This document shows positions 4,040-39,747 of a stretch of DNA of 64,000 bases, piece after piece; within the stretch, counting starts at the first letter, position 1, and every line of letters begins with the position of its first letter. The notes below the pieces were generated by a model that saw nothing but the letters and a program-made list of their open reading frames with translations, was not told where the DNA came from and did not search any database. The position numbers were made by a program, and so were the translations under genes. Origin of the DNA: an uncultured Gammaproteobacteria bacterium. Its GTDB lineage: Bacteria; Patescibacteriota; Patescibacteriia; SG8-24. The DNA is taken from NCBI GenBank assembly GCA_964491475.1, contig CAZBFO010000003.1, positions 8,766 to 72,765 of the forward strand, written 5' to 3'.

Positions 4040-4116
4040 GGACGTTTAGCTCAGCTGGTTAGAGCGCTGTCCTCACACGACAGAGGTCGGTGGTTCGATC
4101 CCACCAACGTCCACCA
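4040..4116 (+). tRNA. tRNA-Val (anticodon CAC)
   Basis: Acceptor stem ggacgtt/aacgtcc; D arm agctcagctggttagagc; anticodon stem ctgtc/gacag with loop ctCACac; T arm ggttcgatcc; discriminator a plus encoded CCA. Confidence 0.85.
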
Positions 4117-4176
4117 CCGAACTTCACGGAACTTCCACGAAACTTCGAGGAGAGGCACATTTTTCCATACATTTCC

Positions 4177-4830
4177 ATGCCTGAAACCATGCCGTCGGCT
4201 GACGAGCCGAAGATGCCCGAAGTGCAGCCAACCGTCGTAGACTCTCCCGATGCGTCCAAGTCCCCCTCGCTCTTTTCACGCATTTTCGCATTTGGAGGCG
4301 AACTGCTGCATGTGGTGGTCATCTCATTGGCCATCATCCTTCCGGTCCGCTACTTCCTGATTCAGCCTTTCTACGTGAAAGGCGCATCAATGGAGCCGAA
4401 TTTTTTCGACCACGAGTACCTCATCATCGATGAGATCGGCTACCGGATGCACGATCCGGCCCGCGGAGACATCGTCGTTTTCCGCTACCCGAACGATCCT
4501 CGCCAGTTCTTCATCAAGCGCGTCATCGGCTTGCCGGGGGAGCGGGTGAAGGTCGGCGGCGGCAAGGTCACCGTCTTCAATCAGGAATACCCGGCAGGCA
4601 AGCCGCTCGACGAGACTTCCTACCTGGGAGAGTTGACGACGAACGGCGAACGTGATACCAAGCTCGGCCCGGACGAATACTTCCTGATGGGCGACAATCG
4701 GCCGGCCAGCCTCGATTCACGCGTTTTCGGCTCCGTGCCGCGGTCGTTCATCGTCGGCCGCGTCTGGCTCCGCGGATGGCCGCCCGAGAAGATGAAAGTC
4801 TTTTCCGACAGCCCCGTAGCCCTCCCCTAA
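4177..4830 (+). CDS. lepB: signal peptidase I
   Basis: GASMEPNF (catalytic Ser box), RGDIVVF, IKRVIGLPGE and GDNRPASLDSR motifs. The ORF-track start at 4090 overlaps the tRNA, so the first ATG after the tRNA (4177) was chosen; 4189 and 4210 are alternatives. Confidence 0.75.
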   Translation: MPETMPSADEPKMPEVQPTVVDSPDASKSPSLFSRIFAFGGELLHVVVISLAIILPVRYFLIQPFYVKGASMEPNFFDHEYLIIDEIGYRMHDPARGDIVVFRYPNDPRQFFIKRVIGLPGERVKVGGGKVTVFNQEYPAGKPLDETSYLGELTTNGERDTKLGPDEYFLMGDNRPASLDSRVFGSVPRSFIVGRVWLRGWPPEKMKVFSDSPVALP

Positions 4831-7816: not shown

Positions 7817-7826
7817 GGAGGCGGTG

Positions 7827-8141: not shown

Positions 8142-8164
8142 TATACCATTTTTAAGCCTAAAAG

Positions 8165-8190
8165 AAAAGGGCGCATGAAGCGCCCCTTAT
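8165..8190. terminator. intrinsic terminator for the metallophosphoesterase gene
   Basis: gggcgc-atgaa-gcgccc hairpin with A/T-rich flanks. Confidence 0.5.
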
Positions 8191-8195
8191 CGGTA

Positions 8196-9125: not shown

Positions 9126-9154
9126 TTCGGGACATTTGACGCCCTAGCCTTAAT
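9126..9154 (+). promoter_or_regulatory. sigma70-like promoter for rpsU (TTGACG-17-TACGAT), divergent from the previous one
   Basis: ttgacg at 9126-9131, 17-nt spacer, tacgat at 9149-9154. Confidence 0.45.
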
Positions 9155-9211
9155 TGAGTACGATGCATCTACGGAAGTATCCCCACGCGCCGCAGGCGCA
9201 AAGAAAGAGAG

Positions 9212-9472
9212 GTGACTATTGTGGCTGAAGTGAAACGAAAGAAAGGTGAAAGCTTTGAGAGCCTTCTGCGCCGGTTTAGCCGGAAAGTGCAGGACAGCGG
9301 CAAGCTTCTTCAGAAAAAGAAGATTCGGTACCACTCGCGCGACAAGTCCAAGACCGCAGTGCGAGCCGCAGCCCTTCGTCGCGAATATCTGCGCGCCAAG
9401 CGCGATTTCTTGATCAAGTCTGGTCAGGCAACCGAAGAAGATTTCCGCCCGAAGCGCGGAGGTCGCCGTTAA
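9212..9472 (+). CDS. rpsU: 30S ribosomal protein S21 (GTG start)
   Basis: 86 aa basic protein; V.V...E.FE..LRRF.R motif; preceded by aagaaagagagg RBS. Confidence 0.8.
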   Translation: MTIVAEVKRKKGESFESLLRRFSRKVQDSGKLLQKKKIRYHSRDKSKTAVRAAALRREYLRAKRDFLIKSGQATEEDFRPKRGGRR

Positions 9473-9484
9473 ACCCGTACCGCG

Positions 9485-9937
9485 ATGACTACCCGAGAGC
9501 GCATCGAAAGCGACTTCACCAGGGAATTCAAAGCACGCAACGCATCCGCCGTGTCCGCACTGCGGATGCTTCGCGCCGCCGTGAAGAACGTGGAGATCGA
9601 CAAGATGCACGCGCTTTCGGAGGAAGAGGTCGTCGACGTGGTCGGCAGGGAGGTCAAGAAACTCCGCGACGGTCTTGAATCGTTCAAGGCTGGCGGACGC
9701 GACGATCTTGCGGCGGGAGTCGCCGCCGAGATCGCGCTGATCGAGACCTACCTCCCGGCCCAGCTCGATGACGCAGCACTGGGTGAACTGGTAGGGAAGA
9801 CCGCGGCCGGCTTGGGTCCGCTCACCGAAAAGGACTTCGGACGGCTCATGAAGGAAGTCATGAAGGCCGCAGCCGGGAAGGCGGACGGGCAAAAGGTCAG
9901 CGCCGCCGTAAAGTCGGCCCTGGCACCAAAGACGTAG
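9485..9937 (+). CDS. yqeY: GatB/YqeY domain protein
   Basis: 150 aa; FKARNASAVSALRMLRAAVKNVEID...IETYLP pattern typical of the YqeY family. Confidence 0.85.
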   Translation: MTTRERIESDFTREFKARNASAVSALRMLRAAVKNVEIDKMHALSEEEVVDVVGREVKKLRDGLESFKAGGRDDLAAGVAAEIALIETYLPAQLDDAALGELVGKTAAGLGPLTEKDFGRLMKEVMKAAAGKADGQKVSAAVKSALAPKT

Positions 9938-9990: not shown

Positions 9991-12339
9991 ATGCTTGGAA
10001 GAGGTGCGAAACGAAAGAACGGGCAGCCCTGGTGGCTGCAAAAGAAGACCGCCTTTTTGACGCTCGCGGTTTTTCTTTTTGTCGGAACGGCGGTGTTCGG
10101 CCATGCTGTTGCCGCGTTCGCGCAGGTCAATGCCAAGGTCGGCCTCGGCGTCGAGTTTGCCACGGCGACCGGGCTGGCTACAGGCGACATCCGCACCTAC
10201 GTCTCCAAGATCATCCGCTACTTCCTGCTGCTGCTCGGCACCATCGCCGTGATCCTTTGCATGTACGCCGGCTTCCTCTGGATGACGGCCGGCGGCAACG
10301 AAGAAAAGATTTCCCAAGCGAAGAAAATCCTGACTAACGCGGTGATCGGCCTGCTCATCATCGTCGCCGCATACGCCATCGTGGCGTTCATCTTGCAATC
10401 TTTGGGCATCGATACCGGAGGGGGAGTGACTTCGAGCGGATCCGGTTCCTCGGGCGCCTTGTCCGGCGGAGGAAACGGCTCCAGTCAGCTGGGCAACGGC
10501 ATCATCGAGTACCACTATCCGGAACCGGGACAGACCGACGTGCCCCGCAACACCAAGATTTCGATCACCTTCAAGAAGCCGCTGGTGCTGTCGTCGGTCA
10601 TCAAGAACTACAACGACAAGGGCACTTATGATCCTTCCGACGACCTGCTGTGCGCCAGCGGCAATACTTGCGCTACCGGTACCGCGATTACCTCCGGCAC
10701 GGTGCTTTCCCTGAACACCGATAACATCAAGATCATTCCCAACAGCGCCTTGTTGCCTGGCGGTTCGGGCACTATCGACCAGCAATTCACCAATCGGTAT
10801 CCTGCCGCCTCGACCTCTGACGCCACCTCTCGCTTCACCGCCGTGGTGGTGCCGATGACCGCCGGTCAGCAGCAGACCATCGTGCTCAAGCCGGTGGCGC
10901 CGATCGGTTCCGCCACCGAGAACGTGAACTATCGCGTGGCGCTGCGCGGCGGCGACAACGGCGTGAAGGCCTGGACGCTCCCCGCCACCGGCGCGACGCC
11001 CGTTGCCGGTGCGGCCTTCTCGCGCACCTATGCCGACGGCGGCTATTACTGGTCTTTCACCACCAGCACCATCATCGACGTGACGCCGCCGCAGATCACC
11101 TCGGTCGTCTCTTCGACCTCGTACCCGGTCGGAACGCCGAGCACTTCGATCCTGTACCGCAACCAGTTGCTGCAGATCTACTTTAACGAAGCCATCGATC
11201 CGACCACTTCTACCGGCATCATCGGCACCGGTCCGGGCGGGGGATTCACGATCATTTCCGTTACGGGTCAGTGCAAGCCGGGCACCTATGATGCCAGCGG
11301 CGTCAACGACCCGACGAAGTGCGTCTTCAACGGCGGCAATCCCGGTTCCATCGACGGTACCGTGGCCATCGGCAATCGCAGCACCACGCTGGAGTTCACG
11401 CCGAGCACCCTCTGCGAAAACGTGCCCCTGAACTCCTGCGGCGAGCAGGTGTTCTGCCTGCCGAAGAACGTTCAGCTGACGGTGCGCGCGCTGGCCGCTT
11501 CCATCGGAGCCAGCGGTCCTTCCTCCATAGCTTCCGACGGCGTCGTCGACATGGCCGATAACTCCATGGACGGCAACCAGAACGGCACGGCAGAAGGTCG
11601 TCCGTCGGCGGTGCAGACCGTCAATCCGGCGAGGACTGCCGACTTCTACCGAAACAACCCGCAGACTGGCACCGACCTGGACACCGTGGACGACAACGCC
11701 AAATGGGACTATTGGGTGGGGGCGGACGTGGATTTGGTGGCCCCGTTCATCACCGAGATGGACCCGATTCCGCTGGGTAACGGCGCTCCGCTGCAGTATC
11801 CGGCCGGACCTTCGCAGGTGCCTCCGGACTTGGTGCCCGCGATCACCTGGAGCAAGGTCATGAGCATCGGCTCCATCCGCACCGGCGCGTTCGACGAATC
11901 GACGAAATCCTACACGCCGCCCACGTCGACGCTTTCGCTCCGTTCAAACGAATGCAAGAAGAACGGCGCCGACGCCTGCAAGCCGGGCGTGGCCTGCGCC
12001 TGCACGCCTGTCGAAGCTCCGGGATACTTCATCGACTCCGGCCTGCCTATAGCGGGATCGAACGGCGCCTTCTTTACCAAGATGCGCTTCCTGCATCCGG
12101 TCCGTCCGTTTTTTACGGCGAACGATCTCGGGTATACTGATGCTGACGTGCTGGCAGGCGCGAACATCCCCATGTACGTGCCCATCTCGCGGGCCCAACT
12201 GCGCGACACCCGGCAGAACTGCTTCTACCCCAGCAAGTACACCTCGTGCAGTACCAATCCTTCCACCGGTCAAACGTCCTGCTGCAACAGCCAAGTGACG
12301 GCAGACGGCACGTTCCTCACTACGTGCACGCCCAACTAG
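9991..12339 (+). CDS. large secreted/surface protein: signal peptide plus two-helix pilin-like (VirB2/TrbC-type architecture) N-terminal module, Ig-like domains, Cys-rich C-terminus
   Basis: 782 aa; N-terminal ~130 aa paralogous to the N-terminus of the following giant ORF (..YAGFLWMTAGGNEEKISQAKKIL..); Ser/Thr/Gly-rich beta-domain-like repeats; C-terminal CCNSQV..C. Confidence 0.8.
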   Translation: MLGRGAKRKNGQPWWLQKKTAFLTLAVFLFVGTAVFGHAVAAFAQVNAKVGLGVEFATATGLATGDIRTYVSKIIRYFLLLLGTIAVILCMYAGFLWMTAGGNEEKISQAKKILTNAVIGLLIIVAAYAIVAFILQSLGIDTGGGVTSSGSGSSGALSGGGNGSSQLGNGIIEYHYPEPGQTDVPRNTKISITFKKPLVLSSVIKNYNDKGTYDPSDDLLCASGNTCATGTAITSGTVLSLNTDNIKIIPNSALLPGGSGTIDQQFTNRYPAASTSDATSRFTAVVVPMTAGQQQTIVLKPVAPIGSATENVNYRVALRGGDNGVKAWTLPATGATPVAGAAFSRTYADGGYYWSFTTSTIIDVTPPQITSVVSSTSYPVGTPSTSILYRNQLLQIYFNEAIDPTTSTGIIGTGPGGGFTIISVTGQCKPGTYDASGVNDPTKCVFNGGNPGSIDGTVAIGNRSTTLEFTPSTLCENVPLNSCGEQVFCLPKNVQLTVRALAASIGASGPSSIASDGVVDMADNSMDGNQNGTAEGRPSAVQTVNPARTADFYRNNPQTGTDLDTVDDNAKWDYWVGADVDLVAPFITEMDPIPLGNGAPLQYPAGPSQVPPDLVPAITWSKVMSIGSIRTGAFDESTKSYTPPTSTLSLRSNECKKNGADACKPGVACACTPVEAPGYFIDSGLPIAGSNGAFFTKMRFLHPVRPFFTANDLGYTDADVLAGANIPMYVPISRAQLRDTRQNCFYPSKYTSCSTNPSTGQTSCCNSQVTADGTFLTTCTPN

Positions 12340-12349
12340 TGCTGACGCA

Positions 12350-15300
12350 ATGACTGCCATGACCACTTTCGTGAAAACCACACTCAAAAAGATTCGGAAC
12401 GCGTCGGCTGCGATAGCCGTCGCGTTTCTGGCGCTTCCGGTGGCCGTGTACGCGGCCGGTCCCGACCTCGGTTTGTCGTATGCAACTGCTACCGGACTGA
12501 CCACCACGGACATCCGCACGGTCATTGCCAGGATCATCAGCTACTTCCTGGGACTGCTCGGGCTGATCGCCCTGCTGCTGATTCTGTATGCGGGCTTCAC
12601 CTGGATGACTGCCGGCGGCAACGAAGAAAAGGTCAGCCAGGCCAAGCGCATCCTCACGCAAGCGGTCATCGGCCTCGTCATCATCATGTCGGCATTCGCC
12701 ATCACGCAGTTCGTCATCGGCGCGATTACCGAGGGAACTTTGGGAGGCAACACCTCGAACAGCGGCTGCACCACTCCGGGGGGGTGCTGCCCCGCCGGCC
12801 AGATCTGCAGCGGCCTGTCCGGAGGAGGGGGATTCAACGTTACCGGCATCACTCCGGCGGGCGCAGGCCCTGGTAATGGCGGCTGGCCCAAGAATTCCTC
12901 GCTCTCGGTCAATTTCAACGCCAACGTCAACATGGCCAGCGCCACCTCCACCAACGTGCAGGTGTTCAAATGCAATCCGCGTTTGGTGAACGGGGCCGCT
13001 TCGCCCTTCAATTACAATTCCTGCAATACGCCGGTGGCCGGCACCATCACCGCTGGCGGCAGCGGCAACCGCATTGACTTCCAGCCGACTGGCACGCCGG
13101 GACCGAACCCGACCGATTTCGAGGCCGATTTCTGGTACAAGATCAGCGTGCAGGGTCAGGCGGTGACCTCGCAGGCCGGCGATCCGCTGCAGTGCCCGCT
13201 TTTCACCTCGGACATTTCTTTGCCGACCGCCCTGAACTCCTATTGCGCTCGCGCCGTGGCTTTCAACGACAAGCGTGACACGCAACCGCCGACGGTCACG
13301 ATCGGCTCTCCGGTCTCGCCGCCCCCGTATTGCGCTTCTTCTTCCGGCGGCAGCCTGGTGCAGGTGATAGCCACGGGCAATGACGACTTCATGGTCGCGG
13401 GCGTCGACTACCTGCTCGACGGCGGCAGTTCCGGCCTGACCGACGTGCGCGGCGTTCCGTTGTCGTCCTCCGTCAACAACGCGGCCGCATTGCCGTTCAA
13501 CTCCGCTGACATCTACGCGGACATCGGCAAGTTGGCGCCGGGCATGCATTCGGTGAGCGCCGTGGCGCGGGACGGCGTGCCGCAGATGAGCTCGACCGCG
13601 CAAACGCAGTTCAAGGTGAACGCGCCGCATTGCTGCAACAACGTGCTCGACACCGCGCAAGGCGAGACCGGCAAGGACTGCGGAGGGGAGTGCGGCTCCT
13701 GCGTCGGAGGGTCCTGCACCGCCACTGCCGATTGCGCCGCGGGTGCGGTCTGCGTCAGCGGCAAATGCGTTACGCAGCCGACGATCACCAGCATCAACAC
13801 CTATTCCGCCGGGCCCGGCACGTACATCACCATCAAGGGAACCGGTTTCGGCACGATTGCCGGCACGGTCACGTTCCTCGGCGCCGCCGGCGACGGCGAC
13901 GACAAGATCGCGCAGGCCTGCGCCGCCAACCAGGGCTGGTCCGACACGCAGGTCATCGTGATCGTCCCTGCGGGCGCAGTCGACGGTCCCATCAAGCTGG
14001 CCGCATCGACGGGATTCGACGCCACCAACGATGCCAACGGCCCGCAGCTGCCTGATTTCAAGATCACTACCGCGACCGCCCCCGGCATCTGCTATCTCGA
14101 TCCGGCTTCCGGAGCTGCTGGCACCAAGTTTGCCATCAACGGCGCGGGCTTCGGGGCTACCATCGGCACGAGCTTCGTGCAGGTGGGATCGACGCAGGCG
14201 ACTGTCGTGACCTGCGGCACGGGCGATACCGACTGCGGTTGGAGCGACTCCCGCATCTGGGTGACGACGCCGCCGATCGCCGAAGGGGATTATCCCGTCA
14301 CTGCAACCGTCAACGGCACGCTTTCCAATCCGAGCACCTACGTGATCAGGCCGGCAGACCCGTTGGCCAGGCCCACCGTCACCGGTGTCATTCCCGAATC
14401 CGGCCCCGTCGGCACCTATGTCACCATCCAAGGTCTGCACTTCGGCACGCGCAAGGGCGTGGTGAAGTTCCTTTACGGCTCCGGCCTCACGGCCGAGGTC
14501 GCCCTTTCCGACGATCCCGTCTGCAGCGACAACTGGCACGACAACTACATCATCGTGAAGGTGCCGGCCAAATATAAGAGCACCTTGCCCGTCAACGCCT
14601 CCAACGCGGGCGTGTCGCATGGCATCCAAGTGGAGACGTCGACGCCCACGCAGATCAGCAACAACAATATTTCTTTCGGCGTGAACTTGGATCCGCTGCG
14701 CCCCGGCATCTGCTCGCTCAAGCCGGACAACGGTCCGGCTGCCAGCAATGTGACCGTGAACGGCGAAGGGTTCAACGGGGGAGGGCAGACGCCGTCTTCG
14801 CCGGGAGCCGCCTCCTCGCCACGGTTCAGCCTTGAATTCTACAAGACCGTCGGCAAGCACTGTCTCTACAGCCCGGCGACCGCCTGCGACGCATTGGCGC
14901 TCGGCACGGCCTGTCCCACTTCGGGTCAGGGCGTTTGCGTCCCCAACACCTTGCCTGCGCCGTTGTTCCGCAGCTGGAGCGACACCACGATCGAAGGGGT
15001 GGTCGCCGGCATTACCACCGACAAGGCCACCTGGCCGAAGACCGGTCCGGTGTACGTCATCGCCAACAACCAGTTGAGCGCCAACGCGGTACCGTTCACC
15101 GTGCAGGACTGCAACCAGGCGGGCATCACTTGCCCCGTCGGCAATCAGTGCTGCTCGAACGGCGCCTGCCAGACCAGCTGCGTGCCTGCCGCCAAGACCA
15201 GCGCCTACGGCTGGCAGTTCAGCACCAGCGTGCTGCCTGCGCTGCCCTATGTCATCGAGCGTGCGCAATGCGACATCGATGCCAAGCTGTTCCAGAGCCC

Positions 15301-18300
15301 GTCGCCGGCGCACGACAGTCAGGATGCCTGCAAGAACGCCCAGGCATACTTCGAGTTCAGCAGGCCGCTCGACACCTCGACCATCAGCAACTCGACCGTG
15401 AAGGCGGACAAATGCGGCACCGGCGATACGCCTGACTGCACGACACCGGTTTCCGTCGCCATGACCATCGGTCAGTCGTCTTTTACCGGTTGCGACGCCC
15501 TGAATCCCGCAAATTGTACCGGCTTCCAGACGCAGCCGAGTCCCGGCTACAACGGCGGCTTCTGGGAAAAGAAGGCCTGGTACCGTGTCACGCTGGTTTC
15601 CAATCCCGCGACCGGCATCGGTCTCCGGGAACCGGGTCCCACGGGTAAGTTCCTGGACGGAGATTTGGACAAGAAGCAGGGCGGCAACTACGTCACCATG
15701 TTCCGCGTTCGCGACAGCGATGACCCGTGCCAGATCGCCAACGTGCTCGTGGCGGCTTCTCGCCAGCTCATCGCCGACGACCAGAACCCCATCGGCTTCA
15801 ACGCCAACCCCATTGCCGCGAACTGCAACGTCCTCACCTGCGACGACAATCAGTACAACATTTCCTGGATTGCCGTTCCGGCCTACCTGACCACCAACAT
15901 CGCGCCGATGTCCCAGCCGACGTCGCAGTGCACCCGAAAGGCGTTGGCGCTCAAGGAGACTCCTCCGGGCCTGACGACCCCGTTCACTGCCACGATGTCC
16001 TCCAAGCCCTCGGGTCCGCCGAAGTCCGGCCAATCCGACGTCACGGTGAAGTTTGCCGATCCGAAGGTCATCGCCGTGAGTCCTACCAACGGCTGCACGC
16101 AGGCATGCATCAACGCGGCGATAACCGCGACGTTCAACGTGCCGATGAACGCCGCTTCGTTGAGCGCGTCCAACGTGCAGGTGCAGATCTGCCGCAACGA
16201 CACCTGCGCGCCGCCGTACCTGCCGTTGCCGAACGGTTTCACCTACACCACCTCCTTGTCACCGGACGGCTTCAAGCTGACGGTCAACAAGTCGATGGAC
16301 TTCGCCGTCAACACCTCGTACATCGTGCGCATCCTCGGCGACAATCCGGCTACGCCGGCGATCGAGGGCGCCTACAGCTTGAGCGGCGTGCCGCTTTCCG
16401 GCCTCAACGACGGCCAGAGCTTCTCTTGGAAGTTCCGCACCAAGAACGACCCCTCGCGCTGTGCCGTGGCCAGCACCAAGCTTGAACCCAAATCGGCAAT
16501 CCTGCGGTTCGTAGGTGACAGGGAGGACCTGACCGGCACCGGTTACGGTTCGGCCGATGCCTGCAATCCCGACGGTCAGGAACTCGACACCAGCACCACC
16601 AACTGGCTGTGGACTTTCGACAACCCGAATTTGGTGCTGCAAGGTTTCGTCCATGGCGACGATCTGGCCGGTCCGTACCAGTTCTGGAAGCCGGAAGTGA
16701 AAGCGACGCAATCCACCGTGGTCGACACCAAGCCGCATCCGGTGCTCGGTTGCAGCTCCAGCTGCCTCTACTCCGGCTCGCAGGATTCCTTGCCGGCCTG
16801 CGGCGACGGCATCGTCGACAGCAAGTTCGAGGCATGCGACCTTGGTCCCGCCAACGGCACCGGTCCGTGCAACAAGAACTGCACCTGGCGCGGCAATACC
16901 GCGGCAAACGGCTGCGGTGACGGCAACGTCGACCCCACCAAGGGAGAGGAGTGCGACATGATCAGCGGCGTGTTCCCGCCGGGCTGCAAGAAGCCCGACG
17001 TGGTCGATCCGAACGGCATCTTCGCCACCAACATCGGCTGCATCATGACCGGCGCTTCGACCGTGCCGGGGACGCAGTGCGGCAACGGCCTGATCGGCGA
17101 CGGCGAAGAGTGCGACGACGGCAGCTTGAGCAACGGCGACGGCTGCAACTCGGACTGTCTGCTTGAAGGTTCGCGTCCGTCATGCGTAATCGATCCGACC
17201 AATCCGCAGTGCATCGGCGTCTGCGGCAACGGCAAGCTGGAACCCGGCGAAGACCCTGATTGCGAGAAGGCAGGCGTTTCGCCGTCCACGCTCAACTGCA
17301 GCCCACACACTTGCCTCAAGAACGGCACTTCGGCTTGTGGCACGCCAAACGACCTCAACTGCTGCGGTAATGGCAAGGCTGATCCGGGCGAAGACCCCGC
17401 ATGCGACACCGTCAACGGCATTCCCCTGTACTGCACCACGCGATGCCTGCTCAAAGGCTCCTCGGCTTTCTACGACAAGCCGTCGTTCTGCGGTGACGGC
17501 TACAAGGGAGCGGGGGAAGTGGCTTCCTGCGAGCCCACCGGCAACGGCGACGGTAACACCGACGGCTACCAGGCGACGGTGGCCAACACCCAGCCCGGCT
17601 TCGACGCCACCAATCCGGCCGGCAGCATGAGCACGGTGAAGGGTTCGATTGCCGGCGTCAGCGACGCCAAATCCGGCCGATCCCAGATCACGCTTAGCTG
17701 CACCTGCAAGAACGAGCCTGTAAATTCCCAGGACACCTTCTGCGCCAACCTCCGCCCCGACTTGGCTTGCGCCGACAACGGCTGCTGCATGCCCAGGCCG
17801 ACGGTGGAACGCGTGGAGCCGACCACCTTCAACTCGTGCCGCAACGCGCTTGTGACCATGGTGTTCAGCGAGGTCATGGATGACTCCTCCGTCACCAAGA
17901 ACTTCATGATCGGCTTCGGCAACGGCAACGACGCTTGCCCGCAAGGGACCGTCGAAGTGCCTGCCGCCTACGTGCCGCAGTCTTTCTGGGTACGGTTGTG
18001 GCAGGGGATGGTCAACTTCCTGAAGGACACCTTCATCCGTCCCGTCTTCGGCGTCAGCGGCAACGACGCCGGTTACGACCAGCAGAAATTCTGCAGCGTC
18101 AAGGGCAACGCGATCATGTTCGTCGACGGTACCGGTCCGACCAAGAAATCGGTGCTGACCTTCACGCCTTCCCACGCTTACCCGACAGACAAGTACATGC
18201 GCATTCGCCTGAACGCCGGTGCCAAATCCGCCAGGGGCGTGCCTTTGTCCATCACGAATACCAGCGGTGCAGGCGGTTATACCGCTTACTTCGGCACCGG

Positions 18301-21300
18301 TTCCACGATTTGCGCCGTCCAGAAGGTGACGGTCAATCCGCCGTCCATCCTGCTTTCGTCGGTCGATGACCAGCAGGTCGTCATGGCAAACGCCGTGGCT
18401 GCCGGCGGGCAGGCCATCGCGCCTACGCCCGAATACGCCTGGGGCTGGTCATGGGACACGTATCCCTCGCAGCCGGTCTCCACGGCCGCCCCGCTGGTGA
18501 TTACCCCTCGCGTCTCCAACATCACCGCCTGCTCCCTCGGTGCCAAGTGCACCGCTGCCGGCGGCTGTCCGTGCTACATCGATTCCGGTTCGGCCCTGTG
18601 TACCGTTGCCGGCGGCGCCGATTCCTGCACGGGCACCGTCACTGAAACCCTGCCGATTGCCGATCTGCGCGTTCGCGGCTCCAAGGCCGCAGACGGCGCC
18701 TATTCGCCGAAGAACAGCAAGGGGCAGCTGCCGATCAACGCCAAGGCGGTCATCGCCAACGAATGCGTGCTGCCGTCGGTCTGCACCTCGCCCTCGGGTT
18801 GCAACTGCGGCGTCGGCCCGTCCTCCTGCACGGTCATCAACGGCGCCACGTCCTGCGCGGTTCTCTCCGGTTCGGGCGTCTCCGTAATCAGCTCGCAAAC
18901 CACCACGGGCACCGGTTCCGCCGTGGTAATGCTCTGCAAGCACCCGTGGCCGAATTATCACGCCTGTGTCGGTCAAGGTTGCTATACGGACATCTGGGAG
19001 CCGTATTCTCCGTTGGAATTCCCCGGCGTGGCCTTCTACTACTGCCGCGATTTGGGCAAGACGGGCGCCACATCGATGGCGCCTGGGCAGCCTGTCGCGG
19101 ACGCCGCCGGGGGAACGAAGCCTGCCAAGTCCGCCTTGCTCGCCGGCTCCACTGCTCCCGCGACCACGCTGCCGTGTCTCAAGGAGACTCCCGCCAGCGT
19201 AGCGGCGCCGGTACCGGGCATTCTTCGCGAGTACCTGTTCACTTATGAGTCGAATCTTAGCAATTGCCCTGATGGTCCGCAGTCTGCGGGCGCGCCATGG
19301 CTAAACGACGCTTTCGGCCTGCGCGTTTCGTCGAACGAGAAGCACGTGAGCATCGGCGATTGGTACTTCGGCCGAGGTTTCCGCGGCAATCCGACCCCGA
19401 AGGCGGTTGACGGTTATGGCGCCCTTAGCGAGGGCCGAACCACCTACGTCAGCGCCGCATTCCGAAAGGCAAGCTCGCAGAAGCTCTACACCAACTCATA
19501 CATCCTCTCGTACAGCGACAATTCCGCTCCGGAGACTTCCGCCATCTACGACCAGATACTAGCGAACGTCGATTTCAATGCGGATCCCGACCTGCAGAAC
19601 TTCGGCGCGTGCCGCCTCGGTCCGTCGCGAACCGACGCCATGGTGCTTTGCACCGTCGATAACGACTGCCGCGTCGACAGCTTCGGCAGGCCCGTTCCCG
19701 GCCGTGAGCAGTACAAGTGCGACGCGGCGACCCATACCGGGTGCGTCACCGATAAAAACGTCGCCGCGCCTGATGCCGGCAACCCTGTCGCTTGCGGCAC
19801 CGATTACGACTGCCTCGTCGGCGCTGGCGGCACTTCGCTGAATCGCCCCGCAACGGTCACCTGCGACGTGCCCAAGGCCAAGCTCACGCGCGACGTGAAG
19901 CGATGGTCCGACCTGCTGTCGCTGCGCGATTCGCTGGTCGCCAAGGCGACGGAGACCGGCTCGTTCCCCAAACTTGATGCCGGAACCTTCCTGCGCGCCC
20001 AAACGAACAGCACTTGGCCTTCGTGGGGTGATGCGTTCGCCAAGGGCGTCGGCGGTACCGTGCCGAACGATCCTGTGAACCAGCATGCCGTCTGCGCGGG
20101 TCCGAACCAGCCTTACGACCCCAAGACCTGCTGGGATGCCAACAGGCGTCAGTACGTCTGTCCTCAAGGTTCGCACGTCTACGAGTACCAGAGTTTCGGC
20201 GGCGTCGACTTCTGGCTGCGCAACGATTTCGAGTACGACGTGCTCGGCGATTCCTGGGCCGGCGGCACCTGCCTCGACAAGACCGATCTCGCCTCCTGCA
20301 TCGCCGATCCGATGTGCGGCGGCACCTGCAGCAACAACAAGGCGCAATCTTGCACCGACAGCGGAGATTGCAACGGCGGCACCTGCCAGGTTCCGTGCAA
20401 CTTCCGACTCGGCAAGGTCATCTTCGGCGCAGGGAATTCTGCTTCCTGCCAGGGCGTGCCGATCAGCCCGACCAGTGGCGGTTCCTGCGGTGACGGCATC
20501 CTGCAGGACAACCAGTCTGATCCCGCCAAGAACGAAGTCTGTGAAATCCGCATGACCCAGTCGCAGGCCTGCAACTCCGACCCTGCTAAGCTGGTACAGA
20601 AGCAGGGTGCTTATACGCAGACCTGCAATTCGCAGTGCAACGGCTGGGTGACGCAGGGCGTGTGCACCGCAAGCAGCCAACGTGCCGGGTTTATCTGCGT
20701 CACGAGCGCTGATTGCGGCACGGGCGGTTCCTGCATCACCTGGACCGATTTCCGCTGCAACGGCGAGGCGGGCAACGCCAAGAACGGCGCCGCCTGCGTC
20801 AAGGATTCCGACTGCACTGATGGCGCCAAGAAGGGCGTCTGCGCCAGCGCATGCCAAGGCGGCCGATGCGGCGACGGCGCCGTGCAGGCTCCCGAGCAGT
20901 GCGATGACGGCGCGTTGAACGGCACCTACGGTCATTGCAAGGCGGACTGCACCGCAGTCGGCTTCTCCTGCGGTGACTCGCTGCGCCAGCCCAACGAGGC
21001 TTGTGACTGCGGCGGCGCCAACGGCCAATATGCCTTCAACGGCATCAAGGCCGCGGCGTCCAACACCAATGCTCCCAACCAGTGTCTCCAGAACCCGGCC
21101 GGTTTCAACGTTTACTCGTGCTCTTGGGACTGCAGCGGCGCGGGTCCGCGCTGCGGCGACGGCATAGTCAACGGCACCGCCGAAAAGTGCGACGGCGGCT
21201 TCGAGGAGTTCAAGGGATTCTGCAACGATGCCGCCCAGACGGGCTGCAACGCCACTGCGAACTGCCCCGCGATCGGTACATGCGTTGGCGGCAAATGCAG

Positions 21301-23155
21301 CAACGGCGACAACGTTTCCTGCGTCTCCAATTCGGATTGCGTGGGATCCTGCGGCCACTTCTGCCCGACAGTCGAGCAGAAGCAGCGCCACTCCTGCAAC
21401 CCCAACAATCCGGCGACCATCGCCGATGACGCCACGGCATGCACCTGGTCCGCTTGGACCTGCACGTCGCCCGGCACCTGCGGCAACGGCAAGAAGGAAA
21501 CCGGAGAGCAGTGCGATGACGGCAATACCGACAATACCGATTCTTGCATCATCGACACGTCGCTCAACTACACCTGCAAGGCTTCCATCTGCGGCGACGG
21601 CTACGTAAATCCGGGTGCCGGCGAAGAGTGCGATACCGGTTCGAGCAACGGACGGCCGTGCATTCCCAAATACGGCATCACTTGCAACTACTGCAACGGC
21701 AATTGCCGTGTCGCCACCGTTTCCGGCGCCTACTGCGGCGACAATGCCATACAGGACTCCACCACCGTGCCCGTCGGTCCGGAACAATGCGACGGCGTAA
21801 AGGGACTGGGTGACGATTGGGTGTGCGTGTCCAACAAGGAAGAGAACCGGTCGTTCGGGCTCATCACTGGTCCCGGCGGCTGCTCGAACCAGACCTGCCA
21901 GCGTGCCTGTGCCGACCCAAACTCTTCGGCATGCAACAACACGGGCGGCAACACCGACAGCGATCAGTGCCCTCCTGGGGCCGCGAAGTCGTGGTGCGAT
22001 TCGCGCAAGGCATTGTCGGACAAGGCGTACACTTCCGTCAGCAGCTCATTCAACCTCACGTTCCTCAAGAGCAACACGACGCCGGCGGGGCTCAACGACA
22101 GCTGCGATCCCGACGACGACAATGACGGCGTGCCCGACAGCCTCGATTGCGACCCCAAGAACGCCAACGCCCATCCCTCCTACCAGATTCCCCCTCACGA
22201 CGGATTGGGCGCGGTGCTCATTCCTGCGGCACCCGAAGTCTGCGACGGCATCGACAATGACTGTGACGGAAAGATTGACAACCTGTTGAGTTTAAGCGGT
22301 CAGATGGTCGACGCGCAGACCGACAAGAAGCTGCCGGGCGCGTCCATCCAGTTCTTCTGCGGACCGAACCTGGTGTACGAGTTTCAGGACAACCAGATTG
22401 ACGGGAACGGAAACTTCAACGTCAACAATGCCGCCATCGACTCATCGCTTTGCGCGGGCGTCACGCAAATCGACTACAAGATCGTGTATGGCGGCGGCTT
22501 GTGCGGCGACGCCGGCGGAAGCTTCCCGTACACCCCAGGCGGTTGCTACGGCTGGATACTTCCCAAGCGATACGTCACCAAGAAGCCCGCTCCGGGCGAT
22601 GTTCGTGCCATTCTTACCTGGGGCGCGAACCCCCGAGACGTCGACTTCCACCTGTTTGCCAACCATGATAAGCCGAACAATCATTTGTGGTTCAGCGCCG
22701 GGGGAGGCAACGGTTCAAACATCAGGGCGCAAGTCAACGACGATGCAGGCTTATATACGCTGGACCACGATAGCACGACCGGCCTCGGTCCCGAGACCAT
22801 CTCGCTGCATCCTAAAGACACCTCGACGATTTACCGATTCGTCGCGCATCGATTCAGCGGCTCGGGTGACCTGCTGGCAAGCCCCATTCGAATCATCGCT
22901 TACGCCGTAAGCAAGCTCGACAACTCTTGCATGGAAAGCGTGTGGAACGCGCCGATCTATACGGGTTACAACCCCGTTTCCGACGATGTCTGCGTCTTCC
23001 AAGTACAGGGGGACAAGGTCGGCAACTGGGCAGGGCATGCTGACTGGCCCTTCTTCGCCTGTCCGCACGACACCACTCACAACATGCTGTTCATCAAGCC
23101 TGGCACGAACGGCAACGACGATACGGACGGTGACGCGCCCAAGTTCGACTACTAG
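12350..23155 (+). CDS. giant (3601 aa) cysteine-rich surface protein: pilin-like N-terminal module, 4 IPT/TIG domains, Ig-like domains, two blocks of Myxococcus-type cysteine-rich repeats, Asp-rich metal-binding motifs
   Basis: Uninterrupted 10.8 kb ORF with GC3 bias; TIG-like repeats (..ITSINTYSAGPGTYITIKGTGFG.. x4, ~13.8-14.8 kb); CGNGxxxxGEECDDGxxxNGDGC repeats (~16.75-17.56 and 20.85-21.80 kb); DCDPxxxNAHP...CDGIDNDCDG near the C-terminus. Confidence 0.85.
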   Translation: MTAMTTFVKTTLKKIRNASAAIAVAFLALPVAVYAAGPDLGLSYATATGLTTTDIRTVIARIISYFLGLLGLIALLLILYAGFTWMTAGGNEEKVSQAKRILTQAVIGLVIIMSAFAITQFVIGAITEGTLGGNTSNSGCTTPGGCCPAGQICSGLSGGGGFNVTGITPAGAGPGNGGWPKNSSLSVNFNANVNMASATSTNVQVFKCNPRLVNGAASPFNYNSCNTPVAGTITAGGSGNRIDFQPTGTPGPNPTDFEADFWYKISVQGQAVTSQAGDPLQCPLFTSDISLPTALNSYCARAVAFNDKRDTQPPTVTIGSPVSPPPYCASSSGGSLVQVIATGNDDFMVAGVDYLLDGGSSGLTDVRGVPLSSSVNNAAALPFNSADIYADIGKLAPGMHSVSAVARDGVPQMSSTAQTQFKVNAPHCCNNVLDTAQGETGKDCGGECGSCVGGSCTATADCAAGAVCVSGKCVTQPTITSINTYSAGPGTYITIKGTGFGTIAGTVTFLGAAGDGDDKIAQACAANQGWSDTQVIVIVPAGAVDGPIKLAASTGFDATNDANGPQLPDFKITTATAPGICYLDPASGAAGTKFAINGAGFGATIGTSFVQVGSTQATVVTCGTGDTDCGWSDSRIWVTTPPIAEGDYPVTATVNGTLSNPSTYVIRPADPLARPTVTGVIPESGPVGTYVTIQGLHFGTRKGVVKFLYGSGLTAEVALSDDPVCSDNWHDNYIIVKVPAKYKSTLPVNASNAGVSHGIQVETSTPTQISNNNISFGVNLDPLRPGICSLKPDNGPAASNVTVNGEGFNGGGQTPSSPGAASSPRFSLEFYKTVGKHCLYSPATACDALALGTACPTSGQGVCVPNTLPAPLFRSWSDTTIEGVVAGITTDKATWPKTGPVYVIANNQLSANAVPFTVQDCNQAGITCPVGNQCCSNGACQTSCVPAAKTSAYGWQFSTSVLPALPYVIERAQCDIDAKLFQSPSPAHDSQDACKNAQAYFEFSRPLDTSTISNSTVKADKCGTGDTPDCTTPVSVAMTIGQSSFTGCDALNPANCTGFQTQPSPGYNGGFWEKKAWYRVTLVSNPATGIGLREPGPTGKFLDGDLDKKQGGNYVTMFRVRDSDDPCQIANVLVAASRQLIADDQNPIGFNANPIAANCNVLTCDDNQYNISWIAVPAYLTTNIAPMSQPTSQCTRKALALKETPPGLTTPFTATMSSKPSGPPKSGQSDVTVKFADPKVIAVSPTNGCTQACINAAITATFNVPMNAASLSASNVQVQICRNDTCAPPYLPLPNGFTYTTSLSPDGFKLTVNKSMDFAVNTSYIVRILGDNPATPAIEGAYSLSGVPLSGLNDGQSFSWKFRTKNDPSRCAVASTKLEPKSAILRFVGDREDLTGTGYGSADACNPDGQELDTSTTNWLWTFDNPNLVLQGFVHGDDLAGPYQFWKPEVKATQSTVVDTKPHPVLGCSSSCLYSGSQDSLPACGDGIVDSKFEACDLGPANGTGPCNKNCTWRGNTAANGCGDGNVDPTKGEECDMISGVFPPGCKKPDVVDPNGIFATNIGCIMTGASTVPGTQCGNGLIGDGEECDDGSLSNGDGCNSDCLLEGSRPSCVIDPTNPQCIGVCGNGKLEPGEDPDCEKAGVSPSTLNCSPHTCLKNGTSACGTPNDLNCCGNGKADPGEDPACDTVNGIPLYCTTRCLLKGSSAFYDKPSFCGDGYKGAGEVASCEPTGNGDGNTDGYQATVANTQPGFDATNPAGSMSTVKGSIAGVSDAKSGRSQITLSCTCKNEPVNSQDTFCANLRPDLACADNGCCMPRPTVERVEPTTFNSCRNALVTMVFSEVMDDSSVTKNFMIGFGNGNDACPQGTVEVPAAYVPQSFWVRLWQGMVNFLKDTFIRPVFGVSGNDAGYDQQKFCSVKGNAIMFVDGTGPTKKSVLTFTPSHAYPTDKYMRIRLNAGAKSARGVPLSITNTSGAGGYTAYFGTGSTICAVQKVTVNPPSILLSSVDDQQVVMANAVAAGGQAIAPTPEYAWGWSWDTYPSQPVSTAAPLVITPRVSNITACSLGAKCTAAGGCPCYIDSGSALCTVAGGADSCTGTVTETLPIADLRVRGSKAADGAYSPKNSKGQLPINAKAVIANECVLPSVCTSPSGCNCGVGPSSCTVINGATSCAVLSGSGVSVISSQTTTGTGSAVVMLCKHPWPNYHACVGQGCYTDIWEPYSPLEFPGVAFYYCRDLGKTGATSMAPGQPVADAAGGTKPAKSALLAGSTAPATTLPCLKETPASVAAPVPGILREYLFTYESNLSNCPDGPQSAGAPWLNDAFGLRVSSNEKHVSIGDWYFGRGFRGNPTPKAVDGYGALSEGRTTYVSAAFRKASSQKLYTNSYILSYSDNSAPETSAIYDQILANVDFNADPDLQNFGACRLGPSRTDAMVLCTVDNDCRVDSFGRPVPGREQYKCDAATHTGCVTDKNVAAPDAGNPVACGTDYDCLVGAGGTSLNRPATVTCDVPKAKLTRDVKRWSDLLSLRDSLVAKATETGSFPKLDAGTFLRAQTNSTWPSWGDAFAKGVGGTVPNDPVNQHAVCAGPNQPYDPKTCWDANRRQYVCPQGSHVYEYQSFGGVDFWLRNDFEYDVLGDSWAGGTCLDKTDLASCIADPMCGGTCSNNKAQSCTDSGDCNGGTCQVPCNFRLGKVIFGAGNSASCQGVPISPTSGGSCGDGILQDNQSDPAKNEVCEIRMTQSQACNSDPAKLVQKQGAYTQTCNSQCNGWVTQGVCTASSQRAGFICVTSADCGTGGSCITWTDFRCNGEAGNAKNGAACVKDSDCTDGAKKGVCASACQGGRCGDGAVQAPEQCDDGALNGTYGHCKADCTAVGFSCGDSLRQPNEACDCGGANGQYAFNGIKAAASNTNAPNQCLQNPAGFNVYSCSWDCSGAGPRCGDGIVNGTAEKCDGGFEEFKGFCNDAAQTGCNATANCPAIGTCVGGKCSNGDNVSCVSNSDCVGSCGHFCPTVEQKQRHSCNPNNPATIADDATACTWSAWTCTSPGTCGNGKKETGEQCDDGNTDNTDSCIIDTSLNYTCKASICGDGYVNPGAGEECDTGSSNGRPCIPKYGITCNYCNGNCRVATVSGAYCGDNAIQDSTTVPVGPEQCDGVKGLGDDWVCVSNKEENRSFGLITGPGGCSNQTCQRACADPNSSACNNTGGNTDSDQCPPGAAKSWCDSRKALSDKAYTSVSSSFNLTFLKSNTTPAGLNDSCDPDDDNDGVPDSLDCDPKNANAHPSYQIPPHDGLGAVLIPAAPEVCDGIDNDCDGKIDNLLSLSGQMVDAQTDKKLPGASIQFFCGPNLVYEFQDNQIDGNGNFNVNNAAIDSSLCAGVTQIDYKIVYGGGLCGDAGGSFPYTPGGCYGWILPKRYVTKKPAPGDVRAILTWGANPRDVDFHLFANHDKPNNHLWFSAGGGNGSNIRAQVNDDAGLYTLDHDSTTGLGPETISLHPKDTSTIYRFVAHRFSGSGDLLASPIRIIAYAVSKLDNSCMESVWNAPIYTGYNPVSDDVCVFQVQGDKVGNWAGHADWPFFACPHDTTHNMLFIKPGTNGNDDTDGDAPKFDY

Positions 23156-23181: not shown

Positions 23182-23700
23182 ATGGATTACGAAAACGCAT
23201 ACGACGACGGCGGCAAGCGGCGGACGACGATCATCGCGATCGTCGTCGTCGCCGTAGTGTTGGCGGGCATCGGGGTCATCGTCGCCCTTGTTTTGCGCAA
23301 CAGGTCGGCAGCCGGCGTTTCGTCGTCTTCAGTCGGAAACGGGGGGGCGACGCAGGGGGCCAAGGTGCCCGATGCAAGCTTTCAATACCAGCAGGTTTCC
23401 GACCCTGCTGCGGCAGTGGGCGGCACGGCGGTGAACGCCAATTCGCCGACAAAAGGCGAAACGCCCCAACCGGGCGTCGATCGCCTTTTGACCGACGAAG
23501 AAAAAAAGAACTACGGTTACCCGGTGGAGTGGAGGGTACGCATGCGAACGACAAAAGGAAGCCTCGGTCTTCAGACCGAAATCATCGTCGAAGACAAGGG
23601 TAACTGGAAATTGCCGGTTGGTAACAAAGAAAAAATCGAGGAGCCGGCTTCGGAACCCGCTCCCGTCGCTGCTCCGACGGCAGCGCCAAAGACGCAATAA
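23182..23700 (+). CDS. hypothetical membrane-anchored protein
   Basis: 172 aa; N-terminal TM helix IIAIVVVAVVLAGIGVIVALVL; extracytoplasmic tail. Confidence 0.5.
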   Translation: MDYENAYDDGGKRRTTIIAIVVVAVVLAGIGVIVALVLRNRSAAGVSSSSVGNGGATQGAKVPDASFQYQQVSDPAAAVGGTAVNANSPTKGETPQPGVDRLLTDEEKKNYGYPVEWRVRMRTTKGSLGLQTEIIVEDKGNWKLPVGNKEKIEEPASEPAPVAAPTAAPKTQ

Positions 23701-23743: not shown

Positions 23744-23778
23744 AAAACCCCTCTGAAAAGAGGGTTTTTGCGTTTTTG
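23744..23778 (+). terminator. intrinsic terminator
   Basis: cccctct-gaaa-agaggg hairpin followed by tttttgcgttttt. Confidence 0.55.
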
Positions 23779-37924: not shown

Positions 37925-37945
37925 AAGCCCGCTTCTGTCTTTCGA

Positions 37946-39739: not shown

Positions 39740-39747
39740 TATCGCCT

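Follow-up and report, generated by a model that had tools for sequence, protein, structure and literature searches.

In F-type and T-type pili, both termini of the pilin lie on the outer surface, and peptides fused to the C-terminus of F-pilin are displayed on the pilus. To our knowledge, pilus formation has been demonstrated for no patescibacterial protein of the PF18895 (T4SS_pilin) family. VirB2-like pilins occur widely in Patescibacteria, and the essential T4SS cluster of Southlakia epibionticum contains an array of them that is itself essential (PMC12102498, PMC10633639, PMC12857230); arrays of 2-11 small pilin genes have been reported by Quinonero-Coronel et al. (2025). A 2025 survey of patescibacterial T4SS treated VirB2 homologues as small proteins and detected no adhesins (PMC12102498). 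A PrgB-like adhesin has not been detected in Patescibacteria (PMC12102498, PMC10633639, PMC12857230), and no patescibacterial homologue of VirB5 or PrgB is known. In a saccharibacterium, cryo-ET revealed tubes of 8.6-9 nm whose tip bears a "barb density" (PMC11880426).

The window analysed here, a 64-kb stretch of DNA from an uncultured ultra-small Patescibacteria/CPR bacterium, contains two adjacent genes that join a pilin domain to an ectodomain. F1 (ORF1, 9991..12339) encodes 782 aa (81.6 kDa) and belongs to a conserved family of ~540-890 aa, and F2 (ORF2, 12350..23155) encodes a giant fusion of 3601 aa (372.6 kDa); both lie on the + strand, 10 bp apart, and have a coding-type GC3 of 0.81. 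The overall layout is the same in each: a signal peptide, a two-helix hydrophobic hairpin, a Gly/Ser linker and a remainder predicted to be extracellular. When the two proteins are compared by BLASTP, the single significant match is the N-terminal region (81/179 identical, 45%; E 3e-28), the pilin cores being 59% identical over their aligned part. When the window was searched in all six frames with a local HMM, only these two copies of the module were recovered. The preliminary description was therefore right about the tandem pair, its position and its shared, paralogous N-terminal module; at 45-59% identity, however, the modules are not near-identical, the masses given above are not "megadalton", and the helix sequences that it quoted had been swapped between ORF1 and ORF2.

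Judged by sequence comparison, the module is a homologue of T4SS pilins. PF18895 scores 32.7 bits with whole ORF1 and 40.1 bits with whole ORF2, against a Pfam cutoff of 26.6, and 47.7 bits with the isolated ORF2 module. The closest relatives are stand-alone patescibacterial VirB2-like pilins of ~124 aa, collinear with the modules and up to 64% identical, and the best 120 matches are all stand-alone pilins (103-184 aa). Like the fusions, these small PF18895 proteins have an Ala-ended leader, a conserved mature N-terminus, two helices and a GFxWMTAGGNEEK loop, and occur in Patescibacteria as tandem paralogues, but they end ~10 aa past helix 2, where the fusions go on with the linker and extend 650 or 3,470 residues further. 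PF04956 (TrbC/VirB2) is also matched by 20 of 37 aligned sequences, namely 35 stand-alone pilins and both window modules (best E 7.9e-7), with neither window module reaching E<=0.01. The VirB2/TrbC/TraA proteins of that family share with the fusions this profile link as well as a long Sec leader and a pair of hydrophobic helices with a short basic loop; the fusions differ from them in not being small, in not lying beside virB4 and in having a monoderm host, and the fusion modules show no sign of cyclisation signals. Both modules further match NF045849, the pilin-like Mbov_0395 family of Mycoplasma ICEs, weakly but along all 80 positions of the model (E 1.2e-8 and 3.4e-9; 34.5 and 36.3 bits, under the family cutoff of 40). 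These two-helix proteins come from a monoderm conjugation system, and the match is in line with the MPF-FATA ancestry proposed for patescibacterial T4SS (PMC12102498); unlike F1 and F2, they are small, are carried on ICEs and lack ectodomains. Searching PDB sequences with a profile of the module gave 0 matches, and Foldseek of the hairpin returned only non-specific helical hairpins (best E 0.32) and no solved conjugative pilin. The earlier call of a VirB2/TrbC-type pilin rather than a type IV (PilA) pilin or a simple signal anchor is supported by these profile matches, the check that it had suggested, PF18895 being above cutoff in both proteins, and no class III leader motif (type IV pilin, prepilin peptidase) is visible in the leaders of the window proteins.

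Each ORF has exactly three hydrophobic segments (aa 19-46, 70-102 and 110-142 in ORF1; aa 15-42, 55-90 and 100-128 in ORF2), and a whole-protein scan found none beyond the N-terminus in either. The first segment ends at a predicted signal-peptidase-I-type site, between AFA and QVN in ORF1 and between VYA and AGP in ORF2; at position -1, Ala predominates (about 80-90% or more) both among stand-alone pilins and within the two fusion families. The signal peptides, which are probably cleaved, cover aa 1-44 of F1 (9991..10122) and aa 1-35 of F2 (12350..12454), with AlphaFold2 helices at 14-38 and 4-35, respectively. The F1 pilin domain (aa 45-137, 10123..10401; PF18895 at aa 67-134) comprises the conserved mature N-terminus FATATGLATGDIR, a helix at 67-98, the loop TAGGNEEK and a helix at 104-137; that of F2 (aa 36-128, 12455..12733; PF18895 at aa 52-122) comprises YATATGLTTTDIR, helices at 55-87 and 92-131 and the same loop. 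AlphaFold2 models segments 2 and 3 of both ORFs as a helical hairpin (pLDDT about 90). Because two helices remain after cleavage behind the first segment, the membrane hairpin suggested in the preliminary description would survive processing. Within the F1 family, conservation peaks in the hairpin region (0.66 vs 0.47 for the ectodomain), and the consensus sequences of F1, F2 and the small pilins are almost alike, including GFxWMTAGGNEEK; this constraint exceeds the needs of a generic anchor. The Gly/Ser-rich flexible linker of F1 (aa 138-166, 10402..10488) is poorly conserved (0.37), with pLDDT <50 at aa 143-155. It leads into an all-beta ectodomain (aa 167-782, 10489..12336) of tandem Ig-like (Big_5/SbsA-type) domains and a Cys-rich C-terminal part, the same kind of bacterial Ig-like domain as in S-layer proteins with SbsA/SbsC-type Big_5. 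The linker and ectodomain of F2 (aa 129-3601, 12734..23152) contain 194 Cys, three TIG/IPT domains (aa ~478-770), a Big_5 domain (aa 1237-1328), Cys-rich acidic repeats (aa ~1575-1607) and a MopE-like motif (aa 3292-3310).

The module is present in 137 of 137 homologues listed (120/120 of the ORF1 family, by PF18895, and 17/17 of the ORF2 family). A search with the ectodomain alone found 125 further proteins, of which 117 carry the module and the other 8 are short (174-489 aa), and in none of them does the ectodomain sit on another type of anchor. These counts show the pilin-ectodomain fusion to be obligate. In 75 of the 76 informative loci, which are those with enough DNA downstream of F1, the very next gene encodes another pilin fusion, usually a giant one. 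At least 75 related species have retained the pair at one and the same chromosomal position, and all genomes in which it was found are labelled Uhrbacteria, Magasanikbacteria, Falkowbacteria, Kerfeldbacteria or unclassified Parcubacteria/Patescibacteria. Counted from the start of the module, the 37 complete F2 copies are 888-3450 aa long (median 3169). The two modules co-vary: mean F1-F2 identity is 51% within a genome and 42% between genomes, the F2 of the same genome ranks first among 75 matches at 29 loci and within the first five at 50, and 0 of 10,000 permutations reached the observed mean. Gene conversion alone could produce such co-variation of two adjacent paralogous segments. Arrays of small PF18895 pilin genes also occur in related genomes; they hold 5-10 genes, among them one canonical member of ~120-124 aa per array. 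One array stems from the sequencing run that also gave the window, and no VirB4 was found near the arrays inspected. In a corresponding comparison for co-variation with the small pilin of the same genome, the rank was 1-2 of 132 in one genome and 16 in a second; for the window it was 24-64, with an array that is possibly from another genome.

Whereas small pilins form such arrays, the fusion pair occupies a fixed housekeeping locus outside the arrays inspected and outside T4SS clusters. The conserved order is lepB-hisS-rpsU-yqeY-F1-F2, two TSP3-repeat membrane proteins, and ybeY-dgkA-ftsA. The lepB gene (signal peptidase I; 4090..4830, + strand; Peptidase_S26, E 1.8e-42) is upstream in 64/85 loci, and its product may be functionally linked to the pair as a candidate processing enzyme for the pilin leaders. 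Directly upstream of F1 are rpsU (S21, in 75/85 loci) and yqeY (in 65/85) at 9212..9937 on the + strand, preceded by a promoter-like site at 9136-9164, a consensus match of a kind that occurs at background frequency. F1 and F2 are candidates for co-transcription, and a common rpsU-yqeY-F1-F2 transcript is possible. It may also include d1 (23182..23700, + strand), a 172-aa single-pass membrane protein whose sequence is not conserved and for which no homologue was found in the other loci; a terminator-like hairpin, again of background frequency, lies 3' of it at 23749-23764. Two further single-pass membrane proteins follow on the + strand: d2 (23883..24587) has bacterial TSP3 (Ca-binding) repeats (PF18884, E 4.4e-21) and a homologue directly after F2 in 20 loci, and d3 (24603..25718) has CxxxC-type repeats and a TSP3 repeat and is syntenic after d2 in 12 loci. 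Pfam scans of all 57 predicted genes confirmed that VirB4, VirB6 and VirD4 genes are absent from the window, as first noted, and in no inspected locus was one found closer than 10 kb to the pair.

With a probability of roughly 0.45, we propose that F1 and F2 are VirB2-type pilins with C-terminal extensions, minor or tip pilins that show adhesin-like ectodomains on a T4SS-type pilus. The long leader would direct each protein to Sec and be removed by signal peptidase I, and the two hydrophobic helices would insert as a hairpin with the short NEEK..AKK loop in the cytoplasm and the mature N-terminus and C-terminus both outside, so that the Gly/Ser linker and the whole Ig-like/TIG/Cys-rich ectodomain would be extracellular. 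The pilin domains would be drawn from the membrane pool by the machinery that polymerises the organism's canonical ~124-aa pilin. Since an appendage of 77 or 369 kDa should not fit on every subunit, F1 and F2 would be rare initiating subunits; in a pilus that grows from its base these would end at the tip, their ectodomains facing a host cell or surface, where they might serve the episymbiotic attachment suggested in the preliminary description. Pilus incorporation, tip location and adhesion are what we infer for a pair that would thereby take the role of VirB5 or PrgB in other T4SS. By analogy, VirB5/TraC-type tip proteins and PrgB of pCF10 have the same proposed function, which is to present an adhesive module either beside a T4SS or at its distal end, but they have no sequence or fold similarity to F1 and F2 and are separate proteins rather than covalent pilin extensions. 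Giant flagellins (PMC6248924) and large type IV pilin-like adhesins likewise combine a conserved polymerisation domain with a very large surface region, although these filament systems are unrelated, and giant flagellins carry an internal insertion and are homopolymers.

That the pair lies among housekeeping and division genes and that F2 is an orthologous core protein of conserved length would suit a constitutive envelope component no less than an adhesin. The main rival to the tip-pilin proposal, which we regard as a credible but more tentative reading, is that a pilin hairpin was co-opted as a stable membrane anchor of two helices; F1 and F2 would then stay in the membrane, and their ectodomains would span the wall and serve this clade as a constitutive surface layer, scaffold or fixed adhesin, perhaps in concert with the TSP3-repeat membrane proteins encoded downstream. 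Such an anchor would suit the core synteny between translation genes and ybeY-dgkA-ftsA-ftsZ, far from T4SS genes, and the two conserved single-pass membrane proteins directly 3' of the pair. F2 orthologues from distant genomes also cover 80-90% of its length, with 19/37 complete copies at 3,169-3,450 aa as counted from the module, and a 369-kDa cargo is hard to square with extraction of a pilin from the membrane. A static anchor needs hydrophobicity only, yet the hairpin, the loop motif and the mature N-terminal motif keep the small-pilin consensus; the ectodomain was found on no other anchor type, and neither SLH nor any other known domain for S-layer anchoring or lattice formation was detected.

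We consider it unlikely that the pilin domains instead occupy the base of the pilus or of the channel, with the ectodomains as a wall-spanning collar or sheath of a kind otherwise seemingly missing in monoderm Patescibacteria. Exactly two conserved, co-varying paralogues per genome, 10 bp apart, would suit an apparatus part, as would the compact, confidently predicted multi-domain model of F1 (pTM 0.79) and the scarcity of VirB8 homologues in Patescibacteria and absence of VirB1 from most VirB2-containing genomes (PMC12102498). The pair is, however, unlinked to virB4 in all loci seen and was found only under the lineage labels named above, whereas T4SS occur in most patescibacterial classes (PMC12102498), and an F2 length of about 900 to 3,450 aa is unusual for a fixed machine part. 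An assembly or frameshift artefact joining a small pilin to a surface-protein gene, or leaders that are pilin-like by composition, is refuted by recurrence across the homologues listed and loci and has almost no probability left: stand-alone pilins are far commoner among the nearest module relatives, but the same in-frame architecture occurs in independently assembled genomes from at least 75 species (at least 441 protein clusters), twice in tandem, with Pfam scores above the curated cutoff and the noted identity to real pilins. As the preliminary description held, the architecture appears not to have been described, in that our literature search found no paper on the pair or the fusion. Public databases already contain these proteins, automatically annotated as "pilin", "TrbC/VirB2 family protein" or "Ig-like domain-containing protein".

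Two genes lie 10 bp apart on the forward strand, ORF1 at 9991-12339 (782 aa) and ORF2 at 12350-23155 (3601 aa), in a window of ~61% G+C that carries housekeeping genes across its whole length. GC3 is 0.81 in both, as in real genes. The sole significant similarity between the two proteins is in the N-terminal region (81/179 residues identical, E 3e-28). Hydropathy analysis of the whole proteins places three hydrophobic segments in each, all inside the first ~140 residues, and none beyond. Segment 1 is a leader that ends AFA|Q in ORF1 and VYA|A in ORF2, and segments 2 and 3 form a helical hairpin in the AlphaFold2 models of both proteins (pLDDT ~90). The preliminary description had proposed such a common module of a signal peptide and a two-helix hairpin, which these results, including the structure prediction it had called for, confirm. 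Its wording needs correction in three respects: the modules are not near-identical (45% identity over the 179-residue match, 59% over the aligned pilin core), the helix sequences it quoted were swapped between the ORFs, and the proteins that it called megadalton have computed masses of 82 and 373 kDa. A local HMM search found no third copy of the module in the window.

Both proteins pass the curated gathering cutoff of the T4SS_pilin family PF18895 (26.6 bits), with 32.7 bits for ORF1 40.1 bits for ORF2, and 47.7 bits (E 1.6e-12) for the ORF2 module on its own. A search of 5.8 billion proteins with this module returned 353 matches. Every one of the best 120 is a stand-alone protein, 103-184 aa long (mostly 123-126 aa) and up to 64% identical to the module; PF18895 is present in them, often with PF04956 too, and the named ones are 'pilin' or 'TrbC/VirB2 family protein' entries from Patescibacteria. 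When 35 stand-alone pilins were aligned with the two window modules, all 37 sequences were collinear with 11 invariant columns, in the order leader, mature N-terminus DLGLxYATATGLxTxD(I/V)R, helix 1, GGFxWMTAGGNEEK, AKK(L/I)I, and helix 2. The small pilins end ~10 residues after helix 2, which is where a Gly/Ser linker begins in ORF1 and ORF2. The TrbC/VirB2 profile PF04956 is matched at E<=0.01 by 20 of the 37 aligned sequences (best E 7.9e-7) and by neither window protein, so that of the two profiles proposed for the N-termini only PF18895 is found in both; a Uhrbacteria orthologue of ORF2 has a weak TrbC match. Taken together, the PF18895 scores, the collinearity with the small pilins, and the link through PF04956 identify the module, at the level of sequence, as the patescibacterial VirB2-like pilin domain. 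Such pilins are widespread in the phylum, occur in arrays of 2-11 genes, and lie inside the essential T4SS cluster of Southlakia (PMC12102498, PMC10633639, PMC12857230).

The earlier view that the module is a VirB2/TrbC-type pilin, and neither a type IV pilin nor a simple anchor, is supported by PF18895, by the stand-alone relatives, and by the absence from both N-termini of the class III motif G|F(T/S)L(I/L)E of PilA-type pilins. The type IV assignment is also at odds with the presence of three hydrophobic segments instead of one, and the Pfam output contains no type IV pilin family. A plain signal anchor is rejected on the N-terminal sequences, the Pfam matches, and the three hydrophobic segments. 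Both modules (9991-10401 and 12350-12733) additionally have full-length, sub-threshold matches to NCBIfam NF045849, a pilin-like protein of Mycoplasma integrative conjugative elements, which hints that VirB2-like pilins may exist in other monoderm conjugation systems. A profile of the 37 modules gave 0 matches at E<=10 among PDB sequences and so provides no sequence link to solved pilins. Foldseek of the AlphaFold2 module model against the PDB recovered only generic helical hairpins (best E 0.32), a leader-bearing two-helix hairpin being too simple a fold to discriminate. A strict regular expression for the loop motif hits 37-43% of fusion modules versus 92% of small pilins, a lower count that is explained by the far broader range of taxa in the fusion sets; the ORF1-family (F1), ORF2-family (F2), and small-pilin modules have nearly identical consensus sequences.

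The fusion recurs far outside the window. Whole ORF1 has 415 homologues, and the best 120 are full-length proteins of 544-889 aa, every one with the pilin module. The ectodomain alone (aa 165-782), searched against 1.84 billion cluster representatives, gave 641 matches, of which 441 reach E<=1e-10. The ectodomain begins at residue ~145-178 of full-length targets. Among the 125 representatives new to this ectodomain-only search, the module is present in 117 and the remaining 8 are short proteins of 174-489 aa; none places the ectodomain behind any other N-terminus, so the fusion is obligate. A search with the first 1200 aa of ORF2, which did not return ORF2 itself, recovered fewer proteins, giants of the type pilin + TIG + Big_5, of which many are cut at contig ends and some bear the name 'TrbC/VirB2 family protein' or 'IPT/TIG domain-containing protein'. 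Hundreds of these fusion proteins are already in public databases under automatic names. The recurrent in-frame architecture in homologues and loci excludes an assembly or frameshift artefact. Full-text searches and the two most relevant papers yielded no description of pilin-ectodomain fusions or of a conserved F1-F2 pair, in keeping with the initial statement that the architecture had not been described; the fusion and the pair are new, and the PF18895 domain family is known.

The two genes also form a conserved pair. A Uhrbacteria genome, a Magasanikbacteria genome, and a 757-kb metagenomic contig have the same order of lepB, hisS, rpsU, yqeY, a pilin fusion of 660-790 aa, and a pilin fusion of 3,350-3,900 aa. 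We scanned one genome per GTDB species and kept 80 loci, labelled Uhrbacteria, Magasanikbacteria, Falkowbacteria, Parcubacteria (including isolate BM507), or Patescibacteria; these labels, together with SG8-24 and BM507, we take to correspond to GTDB class ABY1. The scan reported 575 confirmed stretches, a figure that may include small pilins because one search pattern sits in the pilin domain. Of these loci, 76 extend far enough past F1 to show what comes next, and in 75 of them the next gene is a second pilin fusion; the one exception has an F2 orthologue in which the module was not detected. The 37 complete F2 proteins measure 888-3,450 aa from the start of the module (median 3,169). F2 aligns over 80-90% of its length at 26-36% identity in genomes whose HisS identity is 50-68%, and so it is an orthologue inherited vertically and not a shuffled repeat protein. 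Many Patescibacteria MAG records (those of compared loci L007, L008, L011, and others) are titled 'uncultured Gammaproteobacteria bacterium', and Binatia or Eisenbacteria labels appear on other homologues; such names are obvious placeholders or products of mis-binning, from which no taxonomic distribution should be read.

On the 3' side of F2, two single-pass membrane proteins with TSP3 Ca-binding repeats are followed by ybeY, dgkA, and ftsA, with ftsZ next in the window. The two TSP3 proteins of the window (23883-24587 and 24603-25718, forward strand) have homologues directly after F2 in 20 and 12 other loci, respectively, and may belong to the same functional module as the pair. A further single-pass membrane protein right after F2 (23182-23700, forward strand) is not conserved in sequence. 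A scan for promoters and terminators gave counts at shuffle background, and there is a weak hint of a possible common transcript from rpsU to this last gene. Between hisS and rpsU, on the reverse strand (6362-9035), lie genes for a Fic-domain protein (484 aa), a 104-aa ORF, and a calcineurin-like phosphoesterase. Neither the Fic protein nor the phosphoesterase occurs in any of the 84 loci outside the window's own contig (L001), so the segment appears to be a lineage-specific insertion close to the 5' side of the pair.

ORF1 was modelled confidently by AlphaFold2 (mean pLDDT 86.6, pTM 0.79): the leader helix and the hairpin are followed by a linker that is disordered at aa 143-155 and then by an all-beta region. 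ORF2 contains three TIG domains and one Big_5 domain together with Cys-rich acidic repeats; it has 194 cysteines, its pI is acidic, and the greater part of the protein is without a Pfam match. Neither protein matches a known adhesin family, and similarity to VirB5/TraC or PrgB was absent from the Pfam and NCBIfam output and from the listed fold matches. Elsewhere in the window are genes for a TMEM260-like protein O-mannosyltransferase (35642-37453, forward strand) and a cluster encoding a Wzy-like ligase, two GT4 glycosyltransferases, a DUF11 protein, and a GHL15/FG-GAP protein (50803-59174); the surface proteins may be glycosylated.

The leaders are compatible with removal by signal peptidase I: the -1 Ala of AFA|Q and VYA|A is conserved and lepB is syntenic upstream, and the mature pilin would then be held in the membrane as a hairpin. 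An outward-facing position of both hairpin ends is the established topology of VirB2-type pilins. With the leader removed and the basic loop inside, both ends would face outward here too, which would put the linker and ectodomain outside the cell. We propose that F1 and F2 are minor pilins of a T4SS-type pilus, probably initiating and hence located at its tip, that the pilus itself is built from the canonical small pilin, and that F1 and F2 display adhesin-like ectodomains on it; we put the probability of this function at roughly 0.45. A bolder form, which we consider conceivable but doubtful, is that the T4SS-type pilus of one large patescibacterial clade (genome labels Uhrbacteria, Magasanikbacteria, Falkowbacteria, and Kerfeldbacteria) is covalently joined to its adhesin, the 77- and 369-kDa ectodomains of these initiator or tip pilins forming a distal 'barb' in contact with the host envelope, which it perhaps also penetrates. 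Conjugative pili have about the width of the tubes seen in one saccharibacterium. In this organism, which is of a different class from the window organism, tubes of 8.6-9 nm bear a barb-like density at the tip (PMC11880426).

VirB2-type pilins are treated as small proteins, roughly 7-12 kDa. F1 and F2 lack two pilin features, the small stand-alone size (782 and 3601 aa versus <=184 aa in the 120 nearest stand-alone relatives) and a location in a T4SS cluster. None of the 57 predicted genes of the window is virB4, virB6, or another T4SS cluster gene, as first noted, and the inspected syntenic loci have no T4SS gene within 10 kb of the pair. This remoteness of the core synteny from T4SS genes, along with the S-layer-type Ig domains, favors the main rival, in which the hairpin does no more than anchor the proteins, whose ectodomains build a constitutive surface structure. 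We regard it as a serious, if somewhat doubtful, contender: the hairpin is constrained at the level of the pilin sequence and is the best-conserved part of the F1 family, and F1 and F2 lack the anchoring and lattice modules of SbsA/SbsC-like S-layer proteins, with no such module (e.g. SLH) found alongside their Ig-like domains. That F1 and F2 are fixed, wall-spanning parts of a secretion apparatus strikes us as improbable.

The F1 and F2 modules of one genome are more alike than either is to its orthologues elsewhere. Mean F1-F2 identity is 51% within genomes and 42% between them, a within-genome mean reached in 0 of 10,000 permutations, and in 29 loci the F2 partner from the same genome is the best of 75. 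This co-variation has one of two sources, gene conversion between the adjacent genes or adaptation to a partner that both have in common. Tandem arrays of 5-10 PF18895 genes (compared loci L086, 9481-14255, and L087, 5697-8552) contain the stand-alone pilins closest to the fusion modules, and each array has one canonical pilin of ~120-124 aa and otherwise divergent members; the neighbours are solute-binding-protein and NTP-transferase genes, and no VirB4 lies within 10 kb of either array. When the fusion modules were compared with the canonical pilin of their own genome, they ranked 1-2 of 132 in one genome (loci L030/L086) and 16 in SG8_24, the two genomes covered. The window modules rank 24-64 against a small-pilin array from the same sequencing run, whose common genome origin with the window is unproven (GC 0.59 vs 0.62).

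Monoderm T4SSs were long thought to be without VirB2-type pilins, and Patescibacteria are a recently recognised exception. In Southlakia epibionticum, the only strain tested, epibiotic growth requires the T4SS (PMC12102498, PMC10633639, PMC12857230), and no PrgB-like adhesin has been detected in Patescibacteria (PMC12102498). For host contact by this system, for which no adhesin has been found so far, a pair of pilins with 650- to 3,470-residue ectodomains is a concrete candidate. If the covalent arrangement is true, it would be the first VirB2-type pilin fused to its own adhesin and would explain the absence of VirB5- and PrgB-like proteins; if the anchor model is true, the hairpin would be a new way to fasten giant surface proteins. 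The ORF1 ectodomain family alone spans 441 protein clusters (E<=1e-10) and the pair occurs in at least 75 species. It also offers a simple genomic marker for the clade. HMM surveys should be read with caution, as a two-gene 'pilin array' may in fact be the F1-F2 giants.

At 37481-38337 on the forward strand the window also has smpB, followed immediately by a tmRNA gene (tag ANLLSRAKSALANAFAPSFVPAFA; Rfam tmRNA score 99.4 bits). At 39236-40998 and 59806-61420, likewise on the forward strand, are two ECF-type sigma factor genes, each followed by a gene for a DUF5667 protein, a probable anti-sigma partner. The last gene, at ~61730-64000 on the forward strand and running past the window end, encodes another large secreted protein with signal peptide MTRKAVTAAVVAATIAWSVSLSAFLAPLAAQA and a GC3 of 0.80; the sole ORF listed mechanically there, of 669 aa on the reverse strand (61691-63700, GC3 0.55), is its spurious antisense.
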